The notes beneath the pieces were generated by a model, which saw only the letters and a list, made by a program, of their open reading frames with translations, had not been told where the DNA came from and ran no database searches. A DNA stretch of 64,000 bases, taken from positions 950 through 64,949 of the forward strand of contig JAJYMI010000060.1 in NCBI GenBank assembly GCA_021787125.1, written 5' to 3'. This DNA comes from Thermoplasmata archaeon (GTDB lineage: Archaea > Thermoplasmatota > Thermoplasmata > Thermoplasmatales > GCA-001856825). Below are positions 47,209 to 53,352 of this stretch, piece after piece; the first letter of the stretch is position 1, and each line of letters begins with the position of its first letter. A program made the position numbers and the translations under genes.

Positions 47209-48060
47209 ATGGATTTAACCATTTACTATATCCTATTAATTTTAATTGCAGCAGTTTTTGCTGGAATCATTGGATCTATGGCGGGATTGGGGGGAGGAGT
47301 CTTGATCGTCCCATTCCTGACGCTATACTTCCATGTCCCAATTTCGCTGGCAATAGGTGCGTCGATAATATCAGTTATTGCGACGTCAAGCGGAGCCGCA
47401 TCTGCCTACGTCAAGGACAAGATTTCAAACATAAGGGTCGGAACCTTTCTTGTCCTGTTCACGACCTCAGGCGCCATAGCCGGAGCATTCCTTGAACACA
47501 TCGCTCCGAAGCAGATCATTTACATCGTTTTCGGCGTCGTGCTCCTGATATCCGTCATCCCTCTTATCAGGAAAATAGGGGAAGTAAATCAGCCGCCAAC
47601 CGTAAAGAATGATCCCATCGCGGAGAAACTCTCACTCAATTCCCACTATCCAAACTATGAAATGAAAAAGGAGATGGACTACAATGTCACCGGGGTGAAG
47701 AGCGGATCCGCAATGATGTTGGTCGCGGGGATACTGTCTGGTCTGCTTGGAATCGGTTCGGGCGTCTTCAAGGTCATTGCAATGGATACGTTCATGAAAT
47801 TGCCAATAAAGGTGTCAACAACCACATCCAATTTCATGATAGGAATGACCGCTGCTGCTAGCGCAGGCATATATTTCTTCAACGGGGAAGTGAACCCGAT
47901 CATAGCAGCACCCGTAGCAATAGGCGTCCTAATCGGAGCCGTCGTTGGGGCGAGACTTCTCGTCAGAACGAAGGGGTCGACGGTCAGAATCATCTTTGGA
48001 ATCATAATCGTGGTCGTGGCCGTTGAAATGCTGTTGAGCGGGGTGGGGATAAGCCTATGA
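47209..48060 (+). CDS. TauE/SafE family anion (sulfite) exporter permease
   Basis: 283 aa with duplicated 4-TM halves and Gly-rich helices (GGGVLIVP). Confidence 0.85.
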   Translation: MDLTIYYILLILIAAVFAGIIGSMAGLGGGVLIVPFLTLYFHVPISLAIGASIISVIATSSGAASAYVKDKISNIRVGTFLVLFTTSGAIAGAFLEHIAPKQIIYIVFGVVLLISVIPLIRKIGEVNQPPTVKNDPIAEKLSLNSHYPNYEMKKEMDYNVTGVKSGSAMMLVAGILSGLLGIGSGVFKVIAMDTFMKLPIKVSTTTSNFMIGMTAAASAGIYFFNGEVNPIIAAPVAIGVLIGAVVGARLLVRTKGSTVRIIFGIIIVVVAVEMLLSGVGISL

Positions 48061-48509
48061 GTCCAGAAGACAGGATGATAGAAATAGAGAGAGAAAAGGA
48101 AGAAGAGGAGGACATTTCTTCAAGGATGCTGTCGGTATACCTGATCTGGAGTGTGCTGATCTCTCTCGGTGTGATTGTGATTGGACTGGTGGCATATCTT
48201 GTAACTTCTTCATCGGGCTACATAAGAGTCCCTCTGGATATTCTTCTCAAGTCTGGTGGACCGACTACGACTGTCTTTCCACACTACCTGAATTCAATCA
48301 CAAACGGAGTCATAATGCTGAAATCATTCGCATTTATTCAGCTAGGAATTCTCCTCCTGATACTTTCACCAATCGGCAGAATATTCCTGCAGATCCTGAT
48401 ATACGTAAAGGAGAGGGACAGACCATTCATCGCCATCGCAACGGTGGTTTTCGTAATACTCGTCATATCGCTGTTCCTGTCCAAGGTCGTGCTGTCTTTC
48501 AAAATTTAG
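48057..48509 (+). CDS. DUF1634-like membrane protein
   Basis: 150 aa, 3-4 TM, ATGA overlap with the TauE gene. This pairing is commonly seen. Confidence 0.65.
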   Translation: MSPEDRMIEIEREKEEEEDISSRMLSVYLIWSVLISLGVIVIGLVAYLVTSSSGYIRVPLDILLKSGGPTTTVFPHYLNSITNGVIMLKSFAFIQLGILLLILSPIGRIFLQILIYVKERDRPFIAIATVVFVILVISLFLSKVVLSFKI

Positions 48510-48614: not shown

Positions 48615-49091
48615 CTATAGCTTCTTGCCGTATATCGACAGGATGGATCTCATTCCCAAGCCTGTGTAGAATTTGTGGGCGAGAAGATTTTCCGAAGGGA
48701 ACTCGACGGTTATGATGTTACAGCCCTTCTTGCCCTCTTTCGCTACAAGTGCGTCGAGCATTTTCTTTCCCAACCCTCCCTTCCTGAATTCGGGGAGTAG
48801 ATATATCTCCGTTATCCTGAGTTCCTTCTCGGGTTGATAGAAGGGTCTGTCCAGGATCTCTCCCATGACAGCTCCCACGATCTTTCCCTTGAAGTCAGCA
48901 ACTAGCACATCTCTTGTCTCGAGTTTTATTGCGCTTTCGAGGTATTCAAGAACGTTCTTTTCCAGATCCGGAGACACACTGAAAAGGGGATCGTGTTCCG
49001 AGTTGAATTTCTTGAGCCTCATCACCAGATTCGACGCATCTCTTATGTCTTCTTTTTTCAAGTCTCTTATTTTTATTTCTTCCATCATCAT
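48615..49091 (-). CDS. GNAT family N-acetyltransferase
   Basis: RKGGLGKKML acetyl-CoA motif. ATG 49091-49089 overlaps the malic enzyme TGA (ATGA). The longer track ORF would run into the malic enzyme gene. Confidence 0.8.
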   Translation of the reverse strand: MMMEEIKIRDLKKEDIRDASNLVMRLKKFNSEHDPLFSVSPDLEKNVLEYLESAIKLETRDVLVADFKGKIVGAVMGEILDRPFYQPEKELRITEIYLLPEFRKGGLGKKMLDALVAKEGKKGCNIITVEFPSENLLAHKFYTGLGMRSILSIYGKKL

Positions 49092-50422
49092 TTCACCTTC
49101 TTTATAAGCCCCTGGTCCATCATTTTTTCTATCATGTCCCTGTTTCCAGAGATGATTTTCTTGGCACGATCGTAGTATTCTTCCCTGCTCATCTTCACCC
49201 TTGCCTGGTTCTCCTTCACTCCCTCGTCTGCGATTGCTGCTGCGATTCTCGGGAACACTTCCCACTCCTGCATTGTCGGAATGATGTACTGGTCACTGAT
49301 GCCTTTCTCCTCGGCAAATAGTGCCAATTCCTTTGAAGCTCTCACTATCATCGGCTCGTTGATCTTCTTCACTCTTGCATCGAGCGCTCCTCTGAAAACA
49401 CCTGGAAACACCAGGCTGTTGTTGACCTGGTTAGGGAAGTCCGATCTCCCAGTTCCAACTATTTCCGCGCCGTATTCTTTTGCCTCGCTCGGCCATATTT
49501 CCGGTACCGGATTCGCCAAGGCGAAGACGATTGCCCTCTTCTCCATCTTCCTTATCCACTCCCCCTTAATGACCCCCGGTCCGGGTTTAGAGGCTGCTAT
49601 GAGCACATCTGCACCTTCCATTGCGTCCTGGATTTCTCCAGTTATTCTCTTACCGTTTGTCCTTATGCCAAGGTCGTACTTCCATGGATTGGTTTTCATC
49701 AGGACATCCATATCTTCCCTCTCTGGATGTAGGATTCCATGCGAGTCAACCGCCACAATGTTTCCGATATCAAATCCGGCCGCCTCAAACAGTTTTATGG
49801 TCGCAATGTTGGCCGCTCCTGATCCAACCACGACTATCTTAGTGTCTCTCTCGTTCCTTCCAGTTAGCTTTAGCGCATTAAGCAGACCCGCCAGCGTTGC
49901 ACCTGCGGTTCCGAGCTGATCATCGTGCCACACGGGTATGTTCATTTCGTTTCTCAGCGTTTCCAGCAGATAGAAACACTTCGGCGATTCGATGTCTTCC
50001 AGGTTTATTCCTCCGAAGGCGGGCTCGATAGCCTTCACTATGCTCACCATCTGTTCTTTCTCGTGAACGTTTATGGGAATAGGAATGGCGTCCACTCCTC
50101 CAAGGTACTTGAATATCAGGCCCTTGCCTTCCATCACGGGGAGAGAGGCCTCTGGACCAACATTGCCGAGGCCCAGGACTCTTGTACCATCCGTGACTAT
50201 GGCTACGGTGTTCCACTTCCAGGTCATATCATATGCTAGATCCTTGTCCTTGGCTATCTCGAGTGATACCGCTGCAACTCCCGGAGTGTACCACACCGAA
50301 AAGTCATTGAGGCTCCTAACAGGAACTTTGGGTATCGTCTGAATTTTCCCTAGATAATCCTTGGAGTACTTGATGGCAAGCTCAGAGAAATTCTTACCAC
50401 CGCTTTCCCCCTCATTTCTCAT
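49088..50422 (-). CDS. NAD(P)-dependent malic enzyme
   Basis: 444 aa with motifs SVWYTPGVA, VTDGTRVLGLGN, VVVGSGAANIA. Confidence 0.9.
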   Translation of the reverse strand: MRNEGESGGKNFSELAIKYSKDYLGKIQTIPKVPVRSLNDFSVWYTPGVAAVSLEIAKDKDLAYDMTWKWNTVAIVTDGTRVLGLGNVGPEASLPVMEGKGLIFKYLGGVDAIPIPINVHEKEQMVSIVKAIEPAFGGINLEDIESPKCFYLLETLRNEMNIPVWHDDQLGTAGATLAGLLNALKLTGRNERDTKIVVVGSGAANIATIKLFEAAGFDIGNIVAVDSHGILHPEREDMDVLMKTNPWKYDLGIRTNGKRITGEIQDAMEGADVLIAASKPGPGVIKGEWIRKMEKRAIVFALANPVPEIWPSEAKEYGAEIVGTGRSDFPNQVNNSLVFPGVFRGALDARVKKINEPMIVRASKELALFAEEKGISDQYIIPTMQEWEVFPRIAAAIADEGVKENQARVKMSREEYYDRAKKIISGNRDMIEKMMDQGLIKKVK

Positions 50423-50521
50423 ATTACCGTATGGCGAACGAGATGTTAAATGTTGTCAGGATGCCACGCTGGGCACGATTTTAGGCTAATATAACATTTA
50501 TAGAATGGGAACCATACAAAG

Positions 50522-51127
50522 TTGGAATTTATTGACACTGCAAGGCCTCTCGAGTGGAAAAAGTCAGGTAGAAAGTTTTTAGATTACGTTTCCTATCACA
50601 AACCCATGGCCGACTTAAGGGATCAAGTCGTAGAGGATAGAGGTATAATCAAGAAGATTCAGATTGTGTTCCCAGGCTATCACGGTTACAGGGTAAACGA
50701 GGACCTTCGAGATGCTGATGTGATTTTAAAGGACGAATTGTACAAGAAGATGCTCGACGTTATTACAAACTTGAAAGTGGGCGAGAGCTCTCTCGTCAGC
50801 AGTGGCCAGTTCAAGGGATTGGAGTCTATCGGAGTACTGAGGTCCAGGGTGCAGACTGCTGCGGAAGACGTAAAGCACCACGGTGCAGGATATTCGGGTA
50901 TTTCCGCACCCATCAGAGTGGACGCAAAGAAGATCTCCGCACTTTACGATTTGGACATGAAAATATTCGAGCAAATCCAGAATCTCCAGAAGGCAGTCAA
51001 CGCATTCGTTCAGGATTGCACGTCTGGAAATTTAAACCAATCGAGGATTCAGGATGTAAATGCTTCAATAGCAGCCATTACCGATCTCAACAATAGCAGA
51101 GAGACGCTACTGTACGGAGGGGTCTAA
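50522..51127 (+). CDS. Hypothetical protein, first gene of the SPFH/zinc-ribbon module
   Basis: 201 aa, no family recognised. Start is uncertain (TTG 50522 or ATG 50606). The stop TAA abuts the next ATG. Confidence 0.55.
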   Translation: MEFIDTARPLEWKKSGRKFLDYVSYHKPMADLRDQVVEDRGIIKKIQIVFPGYHGYRVNEDLRDADVILKDELYKKMLDVITNLKVGESSLVSSGQFKGLESIGVLRSRVQTAAEDVKHHGAGYSGISAPIRVDAKKISALYDLDMKIFEQIQNLQKAVNAFVQDCTSGNLNQSRIQDVNASIAAITDLNNSRETLLYGGV

Positions 51128-52291
51128 ATGCCTTTCGGTAAGAAAGGAGCTGGCGTTCCCTCTCAGGGAGGGAGCGTCTTTGGTTCCACCACATTCGAAT
51201 GGGAGGATCAGTTCAAACAGGGAAACATAATGTGGAAAGTTCCAAGACTGATAAGACTGAACGACAACGCGGTCGTTCGAGAGGACGAAACAGCTGTCTT
51301 CTTCAGGGACGGTAAGGCCATATGGTACATCGACAAACCGGGTAGATACGCACTTACGGATCTCAATGCTCCCATAGTCGGTGGACTAGTTAAGGCCCTG
51401 ACGGGAATACAGCAGCAGGCATACGTTTACTATTTGCAGAGAAGGATATTTGATGGAAAATTCGGCTCAAAGGAGCCGTATGCATTCAGGGACAAGGATT
51501 TCGACATTGTCATGCTGAGGCTCTTCGGAGACATGAGGTACAGAATATCCGACCCGTCAATCTTCATAAATCAGTTTGTGGGTACGTTCAACATTGAGAC
51601 CAGTGCGGATGTTGAGGACAGGATAAGAGACCAGGTGGTCCTATTGATCTACAATGTACTCGGAAAGATGAAGGACCAGGGGACCTCGGTACTCGATCTT
51701 CCGTCAAATCTGATGAACATCGAAGAGGCAGTGCTTGCCTCGGCCAAGGCTGCGTTCGATCAGTATGGAGTCGAGCTGAACAAGATATCCGGACTAAACA
51801 TCTCTCTTCCGGACACGGTGCAGAAGGCAATAGACACTCGTTCTAGTATGAAGGCGGTCGGGGCGAATTATCTTCAGTATCAGGCCGGTCAGGCCATGGT
51901 GGACGCTGCAAAGAATCCAAGTGGAACTGCAGGAGCGGGAGTAGGACTTGGAATGGGTATGGGAGCGGGCGCAGGAATGGCATATCCGATGGCTTCCAAC
52001 ATTGCTCAGGGCATGAATCAACAGCAACCTCCTCCGGTGGAAAAGAGGGTGAAGAAGTGTCCCAAGTGTCAGACTGAGGCCGACGAGAATGCAAAGTTCT
52101 GTCCATCCTGTGGATTCGATTTTTCCTCAGAGGGACTTATGAAGTGCCCGAACTGCGGGAAGGACATCACAAAGACCTCAAAGTTCTGTCCAGAGTGCGG
52201 TAAATCGATAGTAACAAAATGTCCAAAGTGTGGTACAGAAATTCCCTCTGGCTCCAAGTTCTGTCCCAACTGCGGTGAAAAGGTGAATTAA
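51128..52291 (+). CDS. SPFH (band-7) domain protein with Gly/Met-rich linker and three C-terminal zinc ribbons
   Basis: 387 aa. The N-terminal ~300 aa resemble the COG4260-type SPFH family. Three CPxC-x11-CPxCG units at the C-terminus. Confidence 0.8.
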   Translation: MPFGKKGAGVPSQGGSVFGSTTFEWEDQFKQGNIMWKVPRLIRLNDNAVVREDETAVFFRDGKAIWYIDKPGRYALTDLNAPIVGGLVKALTGIQQQAYVYYLQRRIFDGKFGSKEPYAFRDKDFDIVMLRLFGDMRYRISDPSIFINQFVGTFNIETSADVEDRIRDQVVLLIYNVLGKMKDQGTSVLDLPSNLMNIEEAVLASAKAAFDQYGVELNKISGLNISLPDTVQKAIDTRSSMKAVGANYLQYQAGQAMVDAAKNPSGTAGAGVGLGMGMGAGAGMAYPMASNIAQGMNQQQPPPVEKRVKKCPKCQTEADENAKFCPSCGFDFSSEGLMKCPNCGKDITKTSKFCPECGKSIVTKCPKCGTEIPSGSKFCPNCGEKVN

Positions 52292-52292
52292 A

Positions 52293-53222
52293 ATGTACTG
52301 TAGGAAGTGCGGATCCCAGATCCCAGACGATTCAGAATTCTGTCCGAAGTGCGGGACTTCCCAGAAGCTAGGCTCGTCCGCTCCATCTGAGAGCGGGAAT
52401 GAGAAGTCACAAAACCAAGAACAGATCCTGAAGGAAATGAAATGCCCGAACTGCGGTGCTCCCCTCAACCCGGCATCTGGAGAGGCTATGGTGGTTTGCA
52501 GTTACTGTGGAACTTCTGTCTCACTTGGATCCCTCGGATGGAGCCGGGTGGAGAAGCACTTCATTCTCGACATCAAGGTCCAGATGAAGGATCAGGCGGA
52601 GCAGATTTCCAAGGCATTCCTTGACAACAGCATTTTTCACAGGCATCTATTCGAAAAGAGTGAGCTGAAGAAGATCGAACTCGACTACCTTCCATACTGG
52701 ATAATGGATGCTGGCTATTCCGCACAGTATCAGTATAAGAGAGAACAGGTAAATCCAGGAGGGTTCGTTGCAGTAGGTATGGGAGGAAGGGGTGGATTCG
52801 GCGGCCCAACGGTCAACGTTCAGACCATAGTGGAGTCTGGGTCGGATGTGAACGAAGTGAATTACCCCGTAATTGCCATTGAGAACATGAATCAGTACCA
52901 ACCCCCAGATTATGTGTTCAACCTCGCGGATAAGAGACCGATTGGACAGAGTGACGTGAACGGTCCGATAAAGCTAATGAACGGGAGCCTGGGTGAGGAG
53001 AAGGCGAGAATGGAAGGAAAGATCAGGATTCAGCAGTGGGAGATTAGGAGATTGCAGAGGAGCGTCCACGGCTTCATGTCAGCTAACGTGAGCGTCGATA
53101 TAGCAGACATGTTTTTGGTCCATATTCCGGTGTGGTCACTTCAGTTCCAGCACAAGGATGAGTCAATATTCCTTCTCATAGATGCTCACAACTCTAGGGT
53201 CATGGAAGAAACAAAGGCGTGA
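52293..53222 (+). CDS. Double zinc-ribbon protein with uncharacterised C-terminal domain
   Basis: 309 aa. CRKCG...CPKCG and CPNCG...CSYCG ribbons followed by an unrecognised ~230-aa domain. 1-nt gap after the SPFH gene. Confidence 0.7.
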   Translation: MYCRKCGSQIPDDSEFCPKCGTSQKLGSSAPSESGNEKSQNQEQILKEMKCPNCGAPLNPASGEAMVVCSYCGTSVSLGSLGWSRVEKHFILDIKVQMKDQAEQISKAFLDNSIFHRHLFEKSELKKIELDYLPYWIMDAGYSAQYQYKREQVNPGGFVAVGMGGRGGFGGPTVNVQTIVESGSDVNEVNYPVIAIENMNQYQPPDYVFNLADKRPIGQSDVNGPIKLMNGSLGEEKARMEGKIRIQQWEIRRLQRSVHGFMSANVSVDIADMFLVHIPVWSLQFQHKDESIFLLIDAHNSRVMEETKA

Positions 53223-53238
53223 ACTGGTTGGTCCGAAC

Positions 53239-53287
53239 TTCCCGCTTCTGATACTTGGACTGAAAGGGAGCTTGAAGCGGGAATTTT
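53239..53287 (+). terminator. Strong hairpin plus TTTT after the three-gene module
   Basis: Perfect 10-bp stem TTCCCGCTTC (53239-53248) / GAAGCGGGAA (53274-53283), 25-nt loop, then TTTT (53284-53287). Confidence 0.5.
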
Positions 53288-53352
53288 GAAACAACTTTCA
53301 ATCAATTGAAAACCGCCACAATATTTTTTTTGTATGTCAAATTATCTATTTT

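Follow-up and report, generated by a model that had tools for sequence, protein, structure and literature searches.

Do three tightly packed genes of a Thermoplasmata archaeon, the middle one encoding an SPFH-domain protein, form an archaeal counterpart of the pspA-ydjGHI (pspA-samGHI) operon of Bacillus subtilis, and what is the small gene that heads them? The genes lie in contig JAJYMI010000060.1 (assembly GCA_021787125.1), of which a stretch of 64,000 nucleotides, here called the window, was analysed. Our data show one operon, in which we assign gene 2 to the SamI/YdjI type of SPFH proteins, gene 3 to the SamG/YdjG homologues, and gene 1 to an unnamed, predicted helical family whose genes stand immediately ahead of Band_7_1 SPFH genes in archaea and some bacteria. 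We favour, at slightly better than even probability, the reading that the operon is an archaeal form of the sub-membrane SPFH scaffold or stress module built on SamG/SamI, lacking PspA and including a third, most conserved partner, and we infer its function from these relationships.

Gene 2 belongs, by its domains and best matches, to the SamI/YdjI-type Band_7_1 proteins. Its Band_7_1 domain (PF13421) scores 113.3 bits with an E-value of 1.6e-32 against a gathering cut-off of 24, and is followed by a linker with the sequence GAGVGLGMGMGAGAGM and by three Pfam matches to Zn_Ribbon_1 (PF13240). For comparison, a B. subtilis-type pspA-ydjGHI locus (L008) was retrieved via the published ydjG primer sequence. 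Its YdjI protein scores 146.9 bits on the same Pfam model, has the same Pfam architecture and is matched by gene 2 over the full length in BLASTP (8e-11). No hydrophobic segment or transmembrane helix was found in gene 2 with hydrophobicity windows. A preliminary description of this DNA, made from its letters alone, had recognised the SPFH domain, the linker and the three ribbons, and erred only in the ribbon spacing, which is CPxC-x10-CPxCG and not x11; the protein was provisionally placed in COG4260. In B. subtilis, SamI consists of an SPFH domain, a stretch of low complexity and a zinc finger without a membrane anchor; it needs SamG and SamH for membrane localisation, assembles into higher-order oligomers and keeps stress signalling in check (PMC8581546; bioRxiv 10.64898/2026.02.06.704340). 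Like SamI, gene 2 is an anchor-less Band_7_1 protein with a Gly/Met-rich low-complexity linker and C-terminal zinc ribbons, of which it has three where SamI has one.

Word-indexed searches with gene 3 returned only Thermoplasmata relatives and one Clostridia protein (P0108). A profile of 34 members of the gene 3 family (A3) aligned with YdjG in hhalign at a probability of 98.7% and an E-value of 2.5e-16 over 275 columns (query 2-331, YdjG 5-307), spanning the region from the two zinc ribbons to a C-terminal motif that reads LLPVW...NGQTGKV in YdjG and HIPVW...IDAHNSRV in gene 3. After two N-terminal ribbons, as in SamG, gene 3 carries the motifs of the YdjG-type central domain, YxPFW ... hhPhW ... 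xDGxxG. The profile also matches YdjG-like proteins from Clostridia (97.7%), a Comamonas plasmid (98.1%; annotated as 'TFIIB-type zinc ribbon-containing protein') and Methanocella (96.2%), and YdjG itself matches a Vibrio neighbour protein at 3e-37. The YdjG-like genes of Bacillus, Clostridia, Comamonas, Vibrio and Methanocella each adjoin a Band_7_1 gene. Because the profile matches YdjG and YdjG-like proteins that all stand beside Band_7_1 genes, we identify gene 3 as a true SamG/YdjG homologue and its C-terminal domain as YdjG-type. The two N-terminal ribbons had been seen earlier, and the domain behind them, then called unplaceable, is the one that the profile now places.

Unlike SamG, gene 3 has no C-terminal transmembrane segment. 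The alignment ends before the hydrophobic tail of YdjG, and gene 3 contains no hydrophobic stretch; the YdjG-like relatives from Clostridia and Methanocella do have transmembrane helices. The AlphaFold2 model of gene 3 is confident (predicted local distance difference test, pLDDT, 84; predicted template modelling score, pTM, 0.72) and shows many long beta-hairpins. It has no meaningful match in the PDB (template modelling score below 0.15), and its matches to pore-forming toxins reflect long beta-strands only. Ravi et al. described the YdjG domain as YpeB-related and NTF2-like (PMC11237479). In more distant Thermoplasmata homologues, one hairpin bears at its tip a Gly/Ala/Met-rich, moderately hydrophobic insertion of 60-80 residues, which may serve as a loop for membrane contact. 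A kinship of gene 3 with the DUF4178 part of a gene 1-DUF4178 fusion was also considered, and on comparison the two are unrelated. In Methanocella sp. PtaU1.Bin125 (L010 3075-5467), three tandem YdjG-like paralogues of 255, 341 and 197 residues follow the gene 1-SPFH pair; each starts with one zinc ribbon, two end in C-terminal transmembrane helices and one is soluble.

The ribbons of both proteins also bear on a different kind of function. In some Band_7_1 SPFH proteins the C-terminus holds an HTH_17 DNA-binding domain instead of zinc ribbons (L011 5598-6656; Comamonas plasmid NZ_CP083452.1, L093 3932-5032), which hints that the C-terminal modules of Band_7_1 proteins may bind nucleic acid. 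The operon could then encode a signalling device, in which an SPFH oligomer withholds modules that bind DNA or RNA polymerase and frees them on stress, giving a transcriptional output. The parts withheld would be the zinc ribbons that genes 2 and 3 encode, or the helix-turn-helix that replaces them in some homologues. Such sequestration would account for the HTH_17 variants, that is, the L011 protein and the Comamonas protein annotated as 'SPFH and helix-turn-helix domain-containing protein'; it would also agree with the NCBI label of TFIIB-type zinc-ribbon proteins for YdjG-like partners, and with the global transcriptional changes that follow loss of SamI in B. subtilis through unrestrained SamG/SamH signalling (bioRxiv 10.64898/2026.02.06.704340). 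However, the ribbons are of the generic PF13240/PF12773 types, none of them is known to bind nucleic acid, and in the ~90 loci examined the module has no link to a transcription factor or kinase. In addition, sequestration leaves gene 1 unexplained, and we consider it unlikely.

The three genes, all on one strand, form a single operon. The TAA of gene 1 (51125-51127) directly adjoins the ATG of gene 2 (51128), a gap of 0 nt, and the ATG of gene 3 (52293) lies 1 nt from the stop of gene 2, as had been described. Shine-Dalgarno-like sequences stand before gene 2 (GGAGGGG, 51116-51122) and before gene 3 (GGTGA, 52282-52286). Across 84 related loci, the gap between gene 1 and the SPFH gene is mostly -4 to +3 nt and that between the SPFH gene and gene 3 mostly 0, 1 or -4 nt. 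Since the same ranges recur in these loci, the tight junctions are not due to chance. The listing of open reading frames in the window contains no fourth gene of the operon.

The likeness to pspA-samGHI, where the genes also form a single operon, thus concerns two of the proteins, and the analogy drawn in the preliminary description is stronger than it claimed: gene 2 is matched to the YdjI/SamI type and gene 3 to YdjG/SamG. The pair of genes 2 and 3 is a member of the known SamI/SamG system. B. subtilis is the one organism in which that system has been characterised, and comparative genomics noted it there. Unlike the Bacillus operon, the operon in the window has neither PspA nor the TPM-domain protein SamH/YdjH (YdjH is a TPM_phosphatase protein in Pfam); its SPFH gene comes before the SamG-like gene, and it starts with an extra, tightly coupled gene of the gene 1 family. 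A phmmer search with a single B. subtilis PspA sequence, which has limited sensitivity, detected no PspA-like gene in the window or in ~90 related loci, in line with the earlier remark that none is adjacent. The statement that the module lacks a functional description still holds for the archaeal triad and for gene 1, but not for genes 2 and 3, whose Bacillus homologues have been studied experimentally (PMC8581546; bioRxiv 10.64898/2026.02.06.704340). Makarova et al. (2024) reported SPFH, coiled-coil and zinc-ribbon proteins in archaeal 'Meth_adaptin' ESCRT loci, and discussed them as an ancient functional link of SPFH proteins with ESCRT-III/PspA (PMC11188069). Like those loci, the window holds an archaeal SPFH protein with zinc ribbons. 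The genes of those loci are linked to Vps4 and ESCRT-III; the module shows no such links in the ~90 loci examined.

Scanning a genome collection with alignment A5 gave 80 loci, all from archaeal genomes, which were annotated with local hidden Markov models. A Band_7_1 gene lies directly 3' of gene 1 in 79 of them, and the exception ends at a contig edge. The loci come from Thermoplasmata, Methanocella, Methanocorpusculum, Methanomicrobium, Methanoperedens, Methanomassiliicoccales and Nitrososphaerales. Six contexts from metagenomes or metagenome-assembled genomes (MAGs) give the bacterial distribution of gene 1; the gene 1-Band_7_1 order occurs there in Bacillota (L012), Planctomycetota (L097) and an untyped metagenome contig (L011). 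The module is therefore not confined to archaea as had been proposed, and the gene 1 family, judged from its homologues, is very large and common to both domains. In the Thermoplasmata subset of the 80 loci, a strong gene 3 homologue follows the gene 1-SPFH pair. Some Methanocellaceae and deeper Thermoplasmata loci have a weaker YdjG-like match one gene further downstream, and loci of the Methanocalculus and Methanomicrobium type have one upstream.

The Band_7_1 and YdjG-like genes, for their part, are paired in Bacillus (L008), Clostridia (L005), Vibrio and Comamonas replicons, Methanocella and Thermoplasmata, and none of the bacterial SPFH-YdjG pairs examined has gene 1. Because gene 1-SPFH occurs in bacteria and archaea while bacterial SPFH-YdjG pairs lack gene 1, there are two overlapping conserved gene pairs, gene 1-SPFH and SPFH-YdjG-like, and the window holds both. 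The triad itself is kept in three distant Thermoplasmata loci (~30% identity) though the flanking genes differ. Only the 17 closest loci have malic enzyme and M61 peptidase genes beside the module; elsewhere the flanks change and the module persists, so that the synteny suggested as a check on the preliminary description is found across Thermoplasmata. Plasmid matches are mostly on very large replicons, and gene 1 has none on plasmids at E <= 1e-5.

What, then, is gene 1? An exhaustive HMMER search found 1062 representative clusters of its family at E <= 1e-3 and 482 with E <= 1e-10. The family has members in Thermoplasmata, Methanocella and further lineages of methanogens, and likewise in Bacillota, Planctomycetota and Chloroflexota. 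Its proteins, predicted helical, have about 175 residues. Two motifs mark the family, PGYxGY...E.(R)R.AD..LR and GYSG...LY.FD, and gene 1 of the window has both together with a full-length profile match. The PGYHGYRVNEDLRD motif singled out in the preliminary description is present and is the best-conserved part of the family; the length of 201 residues given there for gene 1 and the verdict that the protein is unplaceable do not stand, as gene 1 has 173 residues and falls into this large family. P23, D38, Y96, G98, D117 and R165 are invariant in the family alignment (A4). The AlphaFold2 model (pLDDT 78, pTM 0.71) consists of five helices with the conserved motifs in the loops between them, and PGYxGY and GYSG are the invariant loop motifs.

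Neither gene 1 nor any of 31 diverse members has a Pfam family, a match to DUF5798 at E 0.1 being noise. Gene 1 matches the NCBIfam model LIMLP_15305_fam (NF047596) weakly, though nearly end to end, at 31.3 bits and E 1.7e-7, below the cut-off of 210 bits. All 31 diverse members match this model over nearly its full length, likewise below the cut-off (best E 2.4e-23). Membership of gene 1 in the NF047596 equivalog is ruled out by the curated cut-off. Since the scores are far under it, the relation holds at superfamily level only, with the Leptospira family as a distant branch. The only paper found on LIMLP_15305, a Leptospira hypothetical protein, tabulates it among genes that flank a small RNA (PMC7567364), and no published function for it was found in the searched literature.

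Fusions within the gene 1 family involve N-terminal zinc ribbons, N- or C-terminal transmembrane anchors, disordered tails and DUF4178. DUF4178 occurs as an intracellular domain in operons linked to PspA (PMC11237479) and is a domain of PspA/polyamine operons. Because of the anchors, the ribbons and DUF4178, the fusions are consistent with a cytoplasmic protein that works near the membrane. DUF4178 and single anchors at either end are found among P0177, P0248, P0186 and P0200; Chloroflexota fusions have Gly/Ser/Pro/Thr-rich disordered tails of 200-260 residues (the fusion proteins listed include P0166, P0185 and P0190). One Thermoplasmata MAG (L004 5489-5998, 6001-6678) has gene 1 joined to an N-terminal zinc ribbon (P0049); there the triad is preceded by an additional open reading frame of 169 residues with no significant Pfam family. 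On three of three Chloroflexota contigs (L095 4001-4519, L096 4001-4525 and one more), gene 1 lies directly upstream of a xanthine-dehydrogenase/CO-dehydrogenase-type operon with FAD_binding_5/Fer2, a 138-aa protein and MoCoBD.

Given its place at the head of the operon, gene 1 might be a functional stand-in for PspA/ESCRT-III, which the SPFH scaffold would recruit to damaged membrane and which would polymerise or open on lipid. That would make the module a membrane-repair system complete in itself and independent of PspA. Gene 1 is first in its operon, like pspA in pspA-ydjGHI, it is predicted all-helical with a size broadly like that of PspA, no archaeal locus has a linked PspA gene, and its top match in BFVD is a phage PspA/IM30 protein. 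However, this match is not significant (E 0.088, template modelling score 0.30, root-mean-square deviation 30 A), and in the PDB Foldseek returns only generic helical bundles (Tar sensor domain, talin and vinculin) at E >= 0.09 and template modelling scores <= 0.4. The gene 1 profile gives a probability of 0.2% in hhalign against B. subtilis PspA, and a PDB sequence-profile search with gene 1 returned nothing, including no PspA, Vipp1 or ESCRT-III chain; a direct kinship with PspA or ESCRT-III is not supported by these results. ESCRT-III proteins share a topology with a long alpha1-alpha2 hairpin, from which the predicted order of helix lengths in gene 1 differs. In addition, the invariant loop motifs resemble a binding site and not a polymer interface. 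We regard the stand-in as quite improbable. An identity of gene 1 with YdjH, a TPM-domain membrane protein, was likewise rejected (hhalign 0.2%).

If the operon is the PspA-less SamG/SamI-type module that we favour, its action can be sketched by extrapolating oligomerisation, membrane location, stress role and the part played by gene 1 from the Bacillus work and general SPFH biology. Gene 2, a soluble Band_7_1 protein, would oligomerise like other SPFH proteins to a ring- or cage-like scaffold beneath the cytoplasmic membrane, and gene 3 would bind this scaffold as the SamG homologue. The zinc ribbons and Gly-rich hairpin loop of gene 3 and the Gly/Met linker of gene 2 would provide protein-protein, and possibly membrane, contacts. 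Translational coupling would produce gene 1 in fixed proportion to the SPFH protein. As a helical bundle with an invariant two-loop surface, gene 1 may be the dedicated adaptor, regulator or client of the scaffold, occupying the first-gene position that pspA has in Bacillus though unrelated to PspA. The assembly would sense or buffer membrane stress. Several cultured Thermoplasmata have no cell wall, and such a role would be plausible for the group.

Several observations weigh against this model. No transmembrane helix is predicted for any of these three proteins, so membrane association is not evident from their sequences. SamH and PspA, both important in Bacillus, are absent. The fold of gene 1 has no significant match in the PDB or BFVD, and its role is guessed from gene context. 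Finally, the three Chloroflexota homologues of gene 1 are not beside an SPFH gene.

Prokaryotic SPFH genes are known in pairs with partner genes, such as stomatin/QmcA with NfeD (YbbJ), the flotillin YqiK with YqiJ, and HflK/HflC with FtsH. NfeD and YqiJ are described as membrane proteins with a beta-barrel domain. Like the stomatin-NfeD-type pairs, gene 1 and Band_7_1 unite an SPFH scaffold gene with a dedicated small partner conserved over wide phylogenetic distance. Unlike NfeD and YqiJ as so described, gene 1 is predicted to be all-helical and soluble, and the Band_7_1 protein has neither the membrane anchor at the N-terminus nor the long coiled-coil wall of the stomatin, flotillin and HflK-HflC classes. 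SPFH-partner gene pairs are cited in bioRxiv 10.64898/2026.02.06.704340. A bolder reading, to which we give a low probability, would make the gene 1 family an ancient, hitherto unrecognised and near-obligatory Band_7_1 partner comparable to NfeD with stomatin. In Thermoplasmata, where no subunit of the triad has a transmembrane helix, the triad could then be a self-contained, PspA-independent membrane-maintenance machine with gene 1 as an effector or client delivered to the membrane by the SPFH cage, or alternatively a cytosolic SPFH assembly independent of the membrane. As far as the searched literature shows, two things are new: an archaeal form without PspA, SamH and transmembrane helices, and the near-obligatory pairing that joins Band_7_1 to the unnamed gene 1 family.

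The operon also has conserved signals at its ends (Table 1). The listed reading frame of gene 1 opens at a TTG (50522), 28 codons before the ATG at 50606. Nearly all gene 1 homologues are 173 aa long, and stop codons interrupt the extension in the close relatives L013, L015, L016 and L017. The TTG start is ruled out by these in-frame stops and homologue lengths, and gene 1 therefore starts at ATG 50606. In an upstream alignment of 20 related loci, GAAAGTWTTTAGA (50571-50583), or AAAATATTTAAAT in distant relatives, is kept at equal distance from this ATG. GAAAGTWTTTAGA is conserved in close and distant relatives, and the TATA-like promoter that contains it falls inside the proposed extension, with its TATA centre ~26 nt upstream of ATG 50606. 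This short spacing suggests a leaderless or near-leaderless gene 1 messenger RNA, with the transcription start placed from the TATA spacing. The promoter had earlier been sought around 50483-50508; the element conserved in close and distant relatives alike is the one just described, and the former tract is kept only in close relatives. It corresponds to TTTTAGGCTAATATAACATTTATAG, a 25-nt element of the divergent intergenic region that is conserved in at least 10 close relatives and not in distant ones, and that might serve the divergent malic enzyme gene as its promoter, or else act as a second promoter or operator. Downstream of gene 3, the perfect 10-bp hairpin and TTTT noted earlier were recovered; the hairpin folds at -21.4 kcal/mol (z = -3.3 against shuffles), a stability that none of 200 shuffled sequences reaches. 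A T8 run lies 3' of it at 53324-53331. Archaeal termination depends chiefly on oligo-T. The hairpin probably marks the transcript end, to which its stem may contribute.

Table 1. Features of the three-gene operon in the window (nucleotide positions refer to the window, residues to the encoded protein).
Feature	Position	Strand	Basis
25-nt intergenic element TTTTAGGCTAATATAACATTTATAG	50479-50503		Kept in L013-L021, L015, L016 only
BRE (B recognition element)/TATA-like core promoter AGAAAGTTTTTAGATT	50570-50585	+	Upstream alignment of 20 related loci
Gene 1, 173 aa, predicted five-helix bundle	50606-51127	+	Homologue length, AlphaFold2
Gene 2, 387 aa, SamI/YdjI-type SPFH protein	51128-52291	+	Pfam, BLASTP
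Gene 2, Band_7_1 domain	Residues 42-242, nt 51251-51853	+	Pfam PF13421
Gene 2, Gly/Ala/Met-rich low-complexity linker	~Residues 262-300	+	Sequence
Gene 2, three zinc ribbons	Residues 309-385, nt 52052-52282	+	Zn_Ribbon_1 x3
Gene 3, 309 aa, SamG/YdjG homologue	52293-53222	+	hhalign, AlphaFold2
Gene 3, zinc ribbon 1	Residues 3-21	+	Pfam
Gene 3, zinc ribbon 2	Residues 51-73	+	Pfam
Gene 3, YdjG-type beta-rich domain	~Residues 80-309	+	hhalign vs YdjG
Hairpin and TTTT	53239-53287	+	10-bp perfect stem 53239-53248/53274-53283, TTTT 53284-53287

The genes around the operon bear on the suggestion, also made in the preliminary description, that the module is antiviral or acts in abortive infection. Some defence systems do contain SPFH proteins and zinc ribbons, and such a role would fit the one defence-like neighbourhood that was seen: on Vibrio coralliilyticus plasmid NZ_CP048695.1 (L094 48-917, 3956-6109), an SPFH and YdjG-like pair adjoins, in divergent orientation, a cluster that includes a TIR-domain protein. 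However, genes 1 and 2 have no match in PADLOC-DB, the best match of gene 3 (E 0.03) is zinc-ribbon noise, and no match to the SPFH domain turned up among 50,697 phage records. A known defence system was rejected on these searches. The flanking genes are of the housekeeping kind, encoding TauE/DUF1634, GNAT, malic enzyme, M61 peptidase, uracil-DNA glycosylase (UDG), trehalose phosphatase and helicase proteins. In addition, the locus is stable and vertically inherited within its clade, and nuclease, protease, nucleoside triphosphatase and toxin domains are all absent from the module. We find a defence function hardly credible.

Two other details of the flanks may be recorded. As listed, the GNAT acetyltransferase reading frame (48615-49265, minus strand) shares 178 nt with the malic enzyme gene (49088-50422, minus strand) at the latter's 3' end; it has a GTG start, and its first ~57 residues are of low complexity. 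Its real start is probably at the MMMEE methionines, which would abolish the overlap. Further along, at 47209-48509, a TauE/SafE exporter gene and a DUF1634 gene overlap by 4 nt (48057-48060) and, because of this overlap, are another translationally coupled pair.

SPFH proteins are universal and their mechanism is poorly understood; the SamI/YdjI class has been studied solely in B. subtilis, where it is entangled with PspA. Our results show that the SamI-SamG pair reaches beyond Bacillus to Proteobacteria, Clostridia and Euryarchaeota, commonly without PspA. In archaea, the companion found with it most constantly comes from an unnamed, predicted helical family with over 1000 sequence clusters, for which the pairing provides a first functional context. 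The operon in the window offers a minimal set of three proteins without a transmembrane helix, which should be easy to express and to image by cryo-electron microscopy. Such a set would help to show in what way SPFH scaffolds without an anchor assemble, and what is held by them. In Thermoplasmata, it represents a candidate membrane-integrity module.

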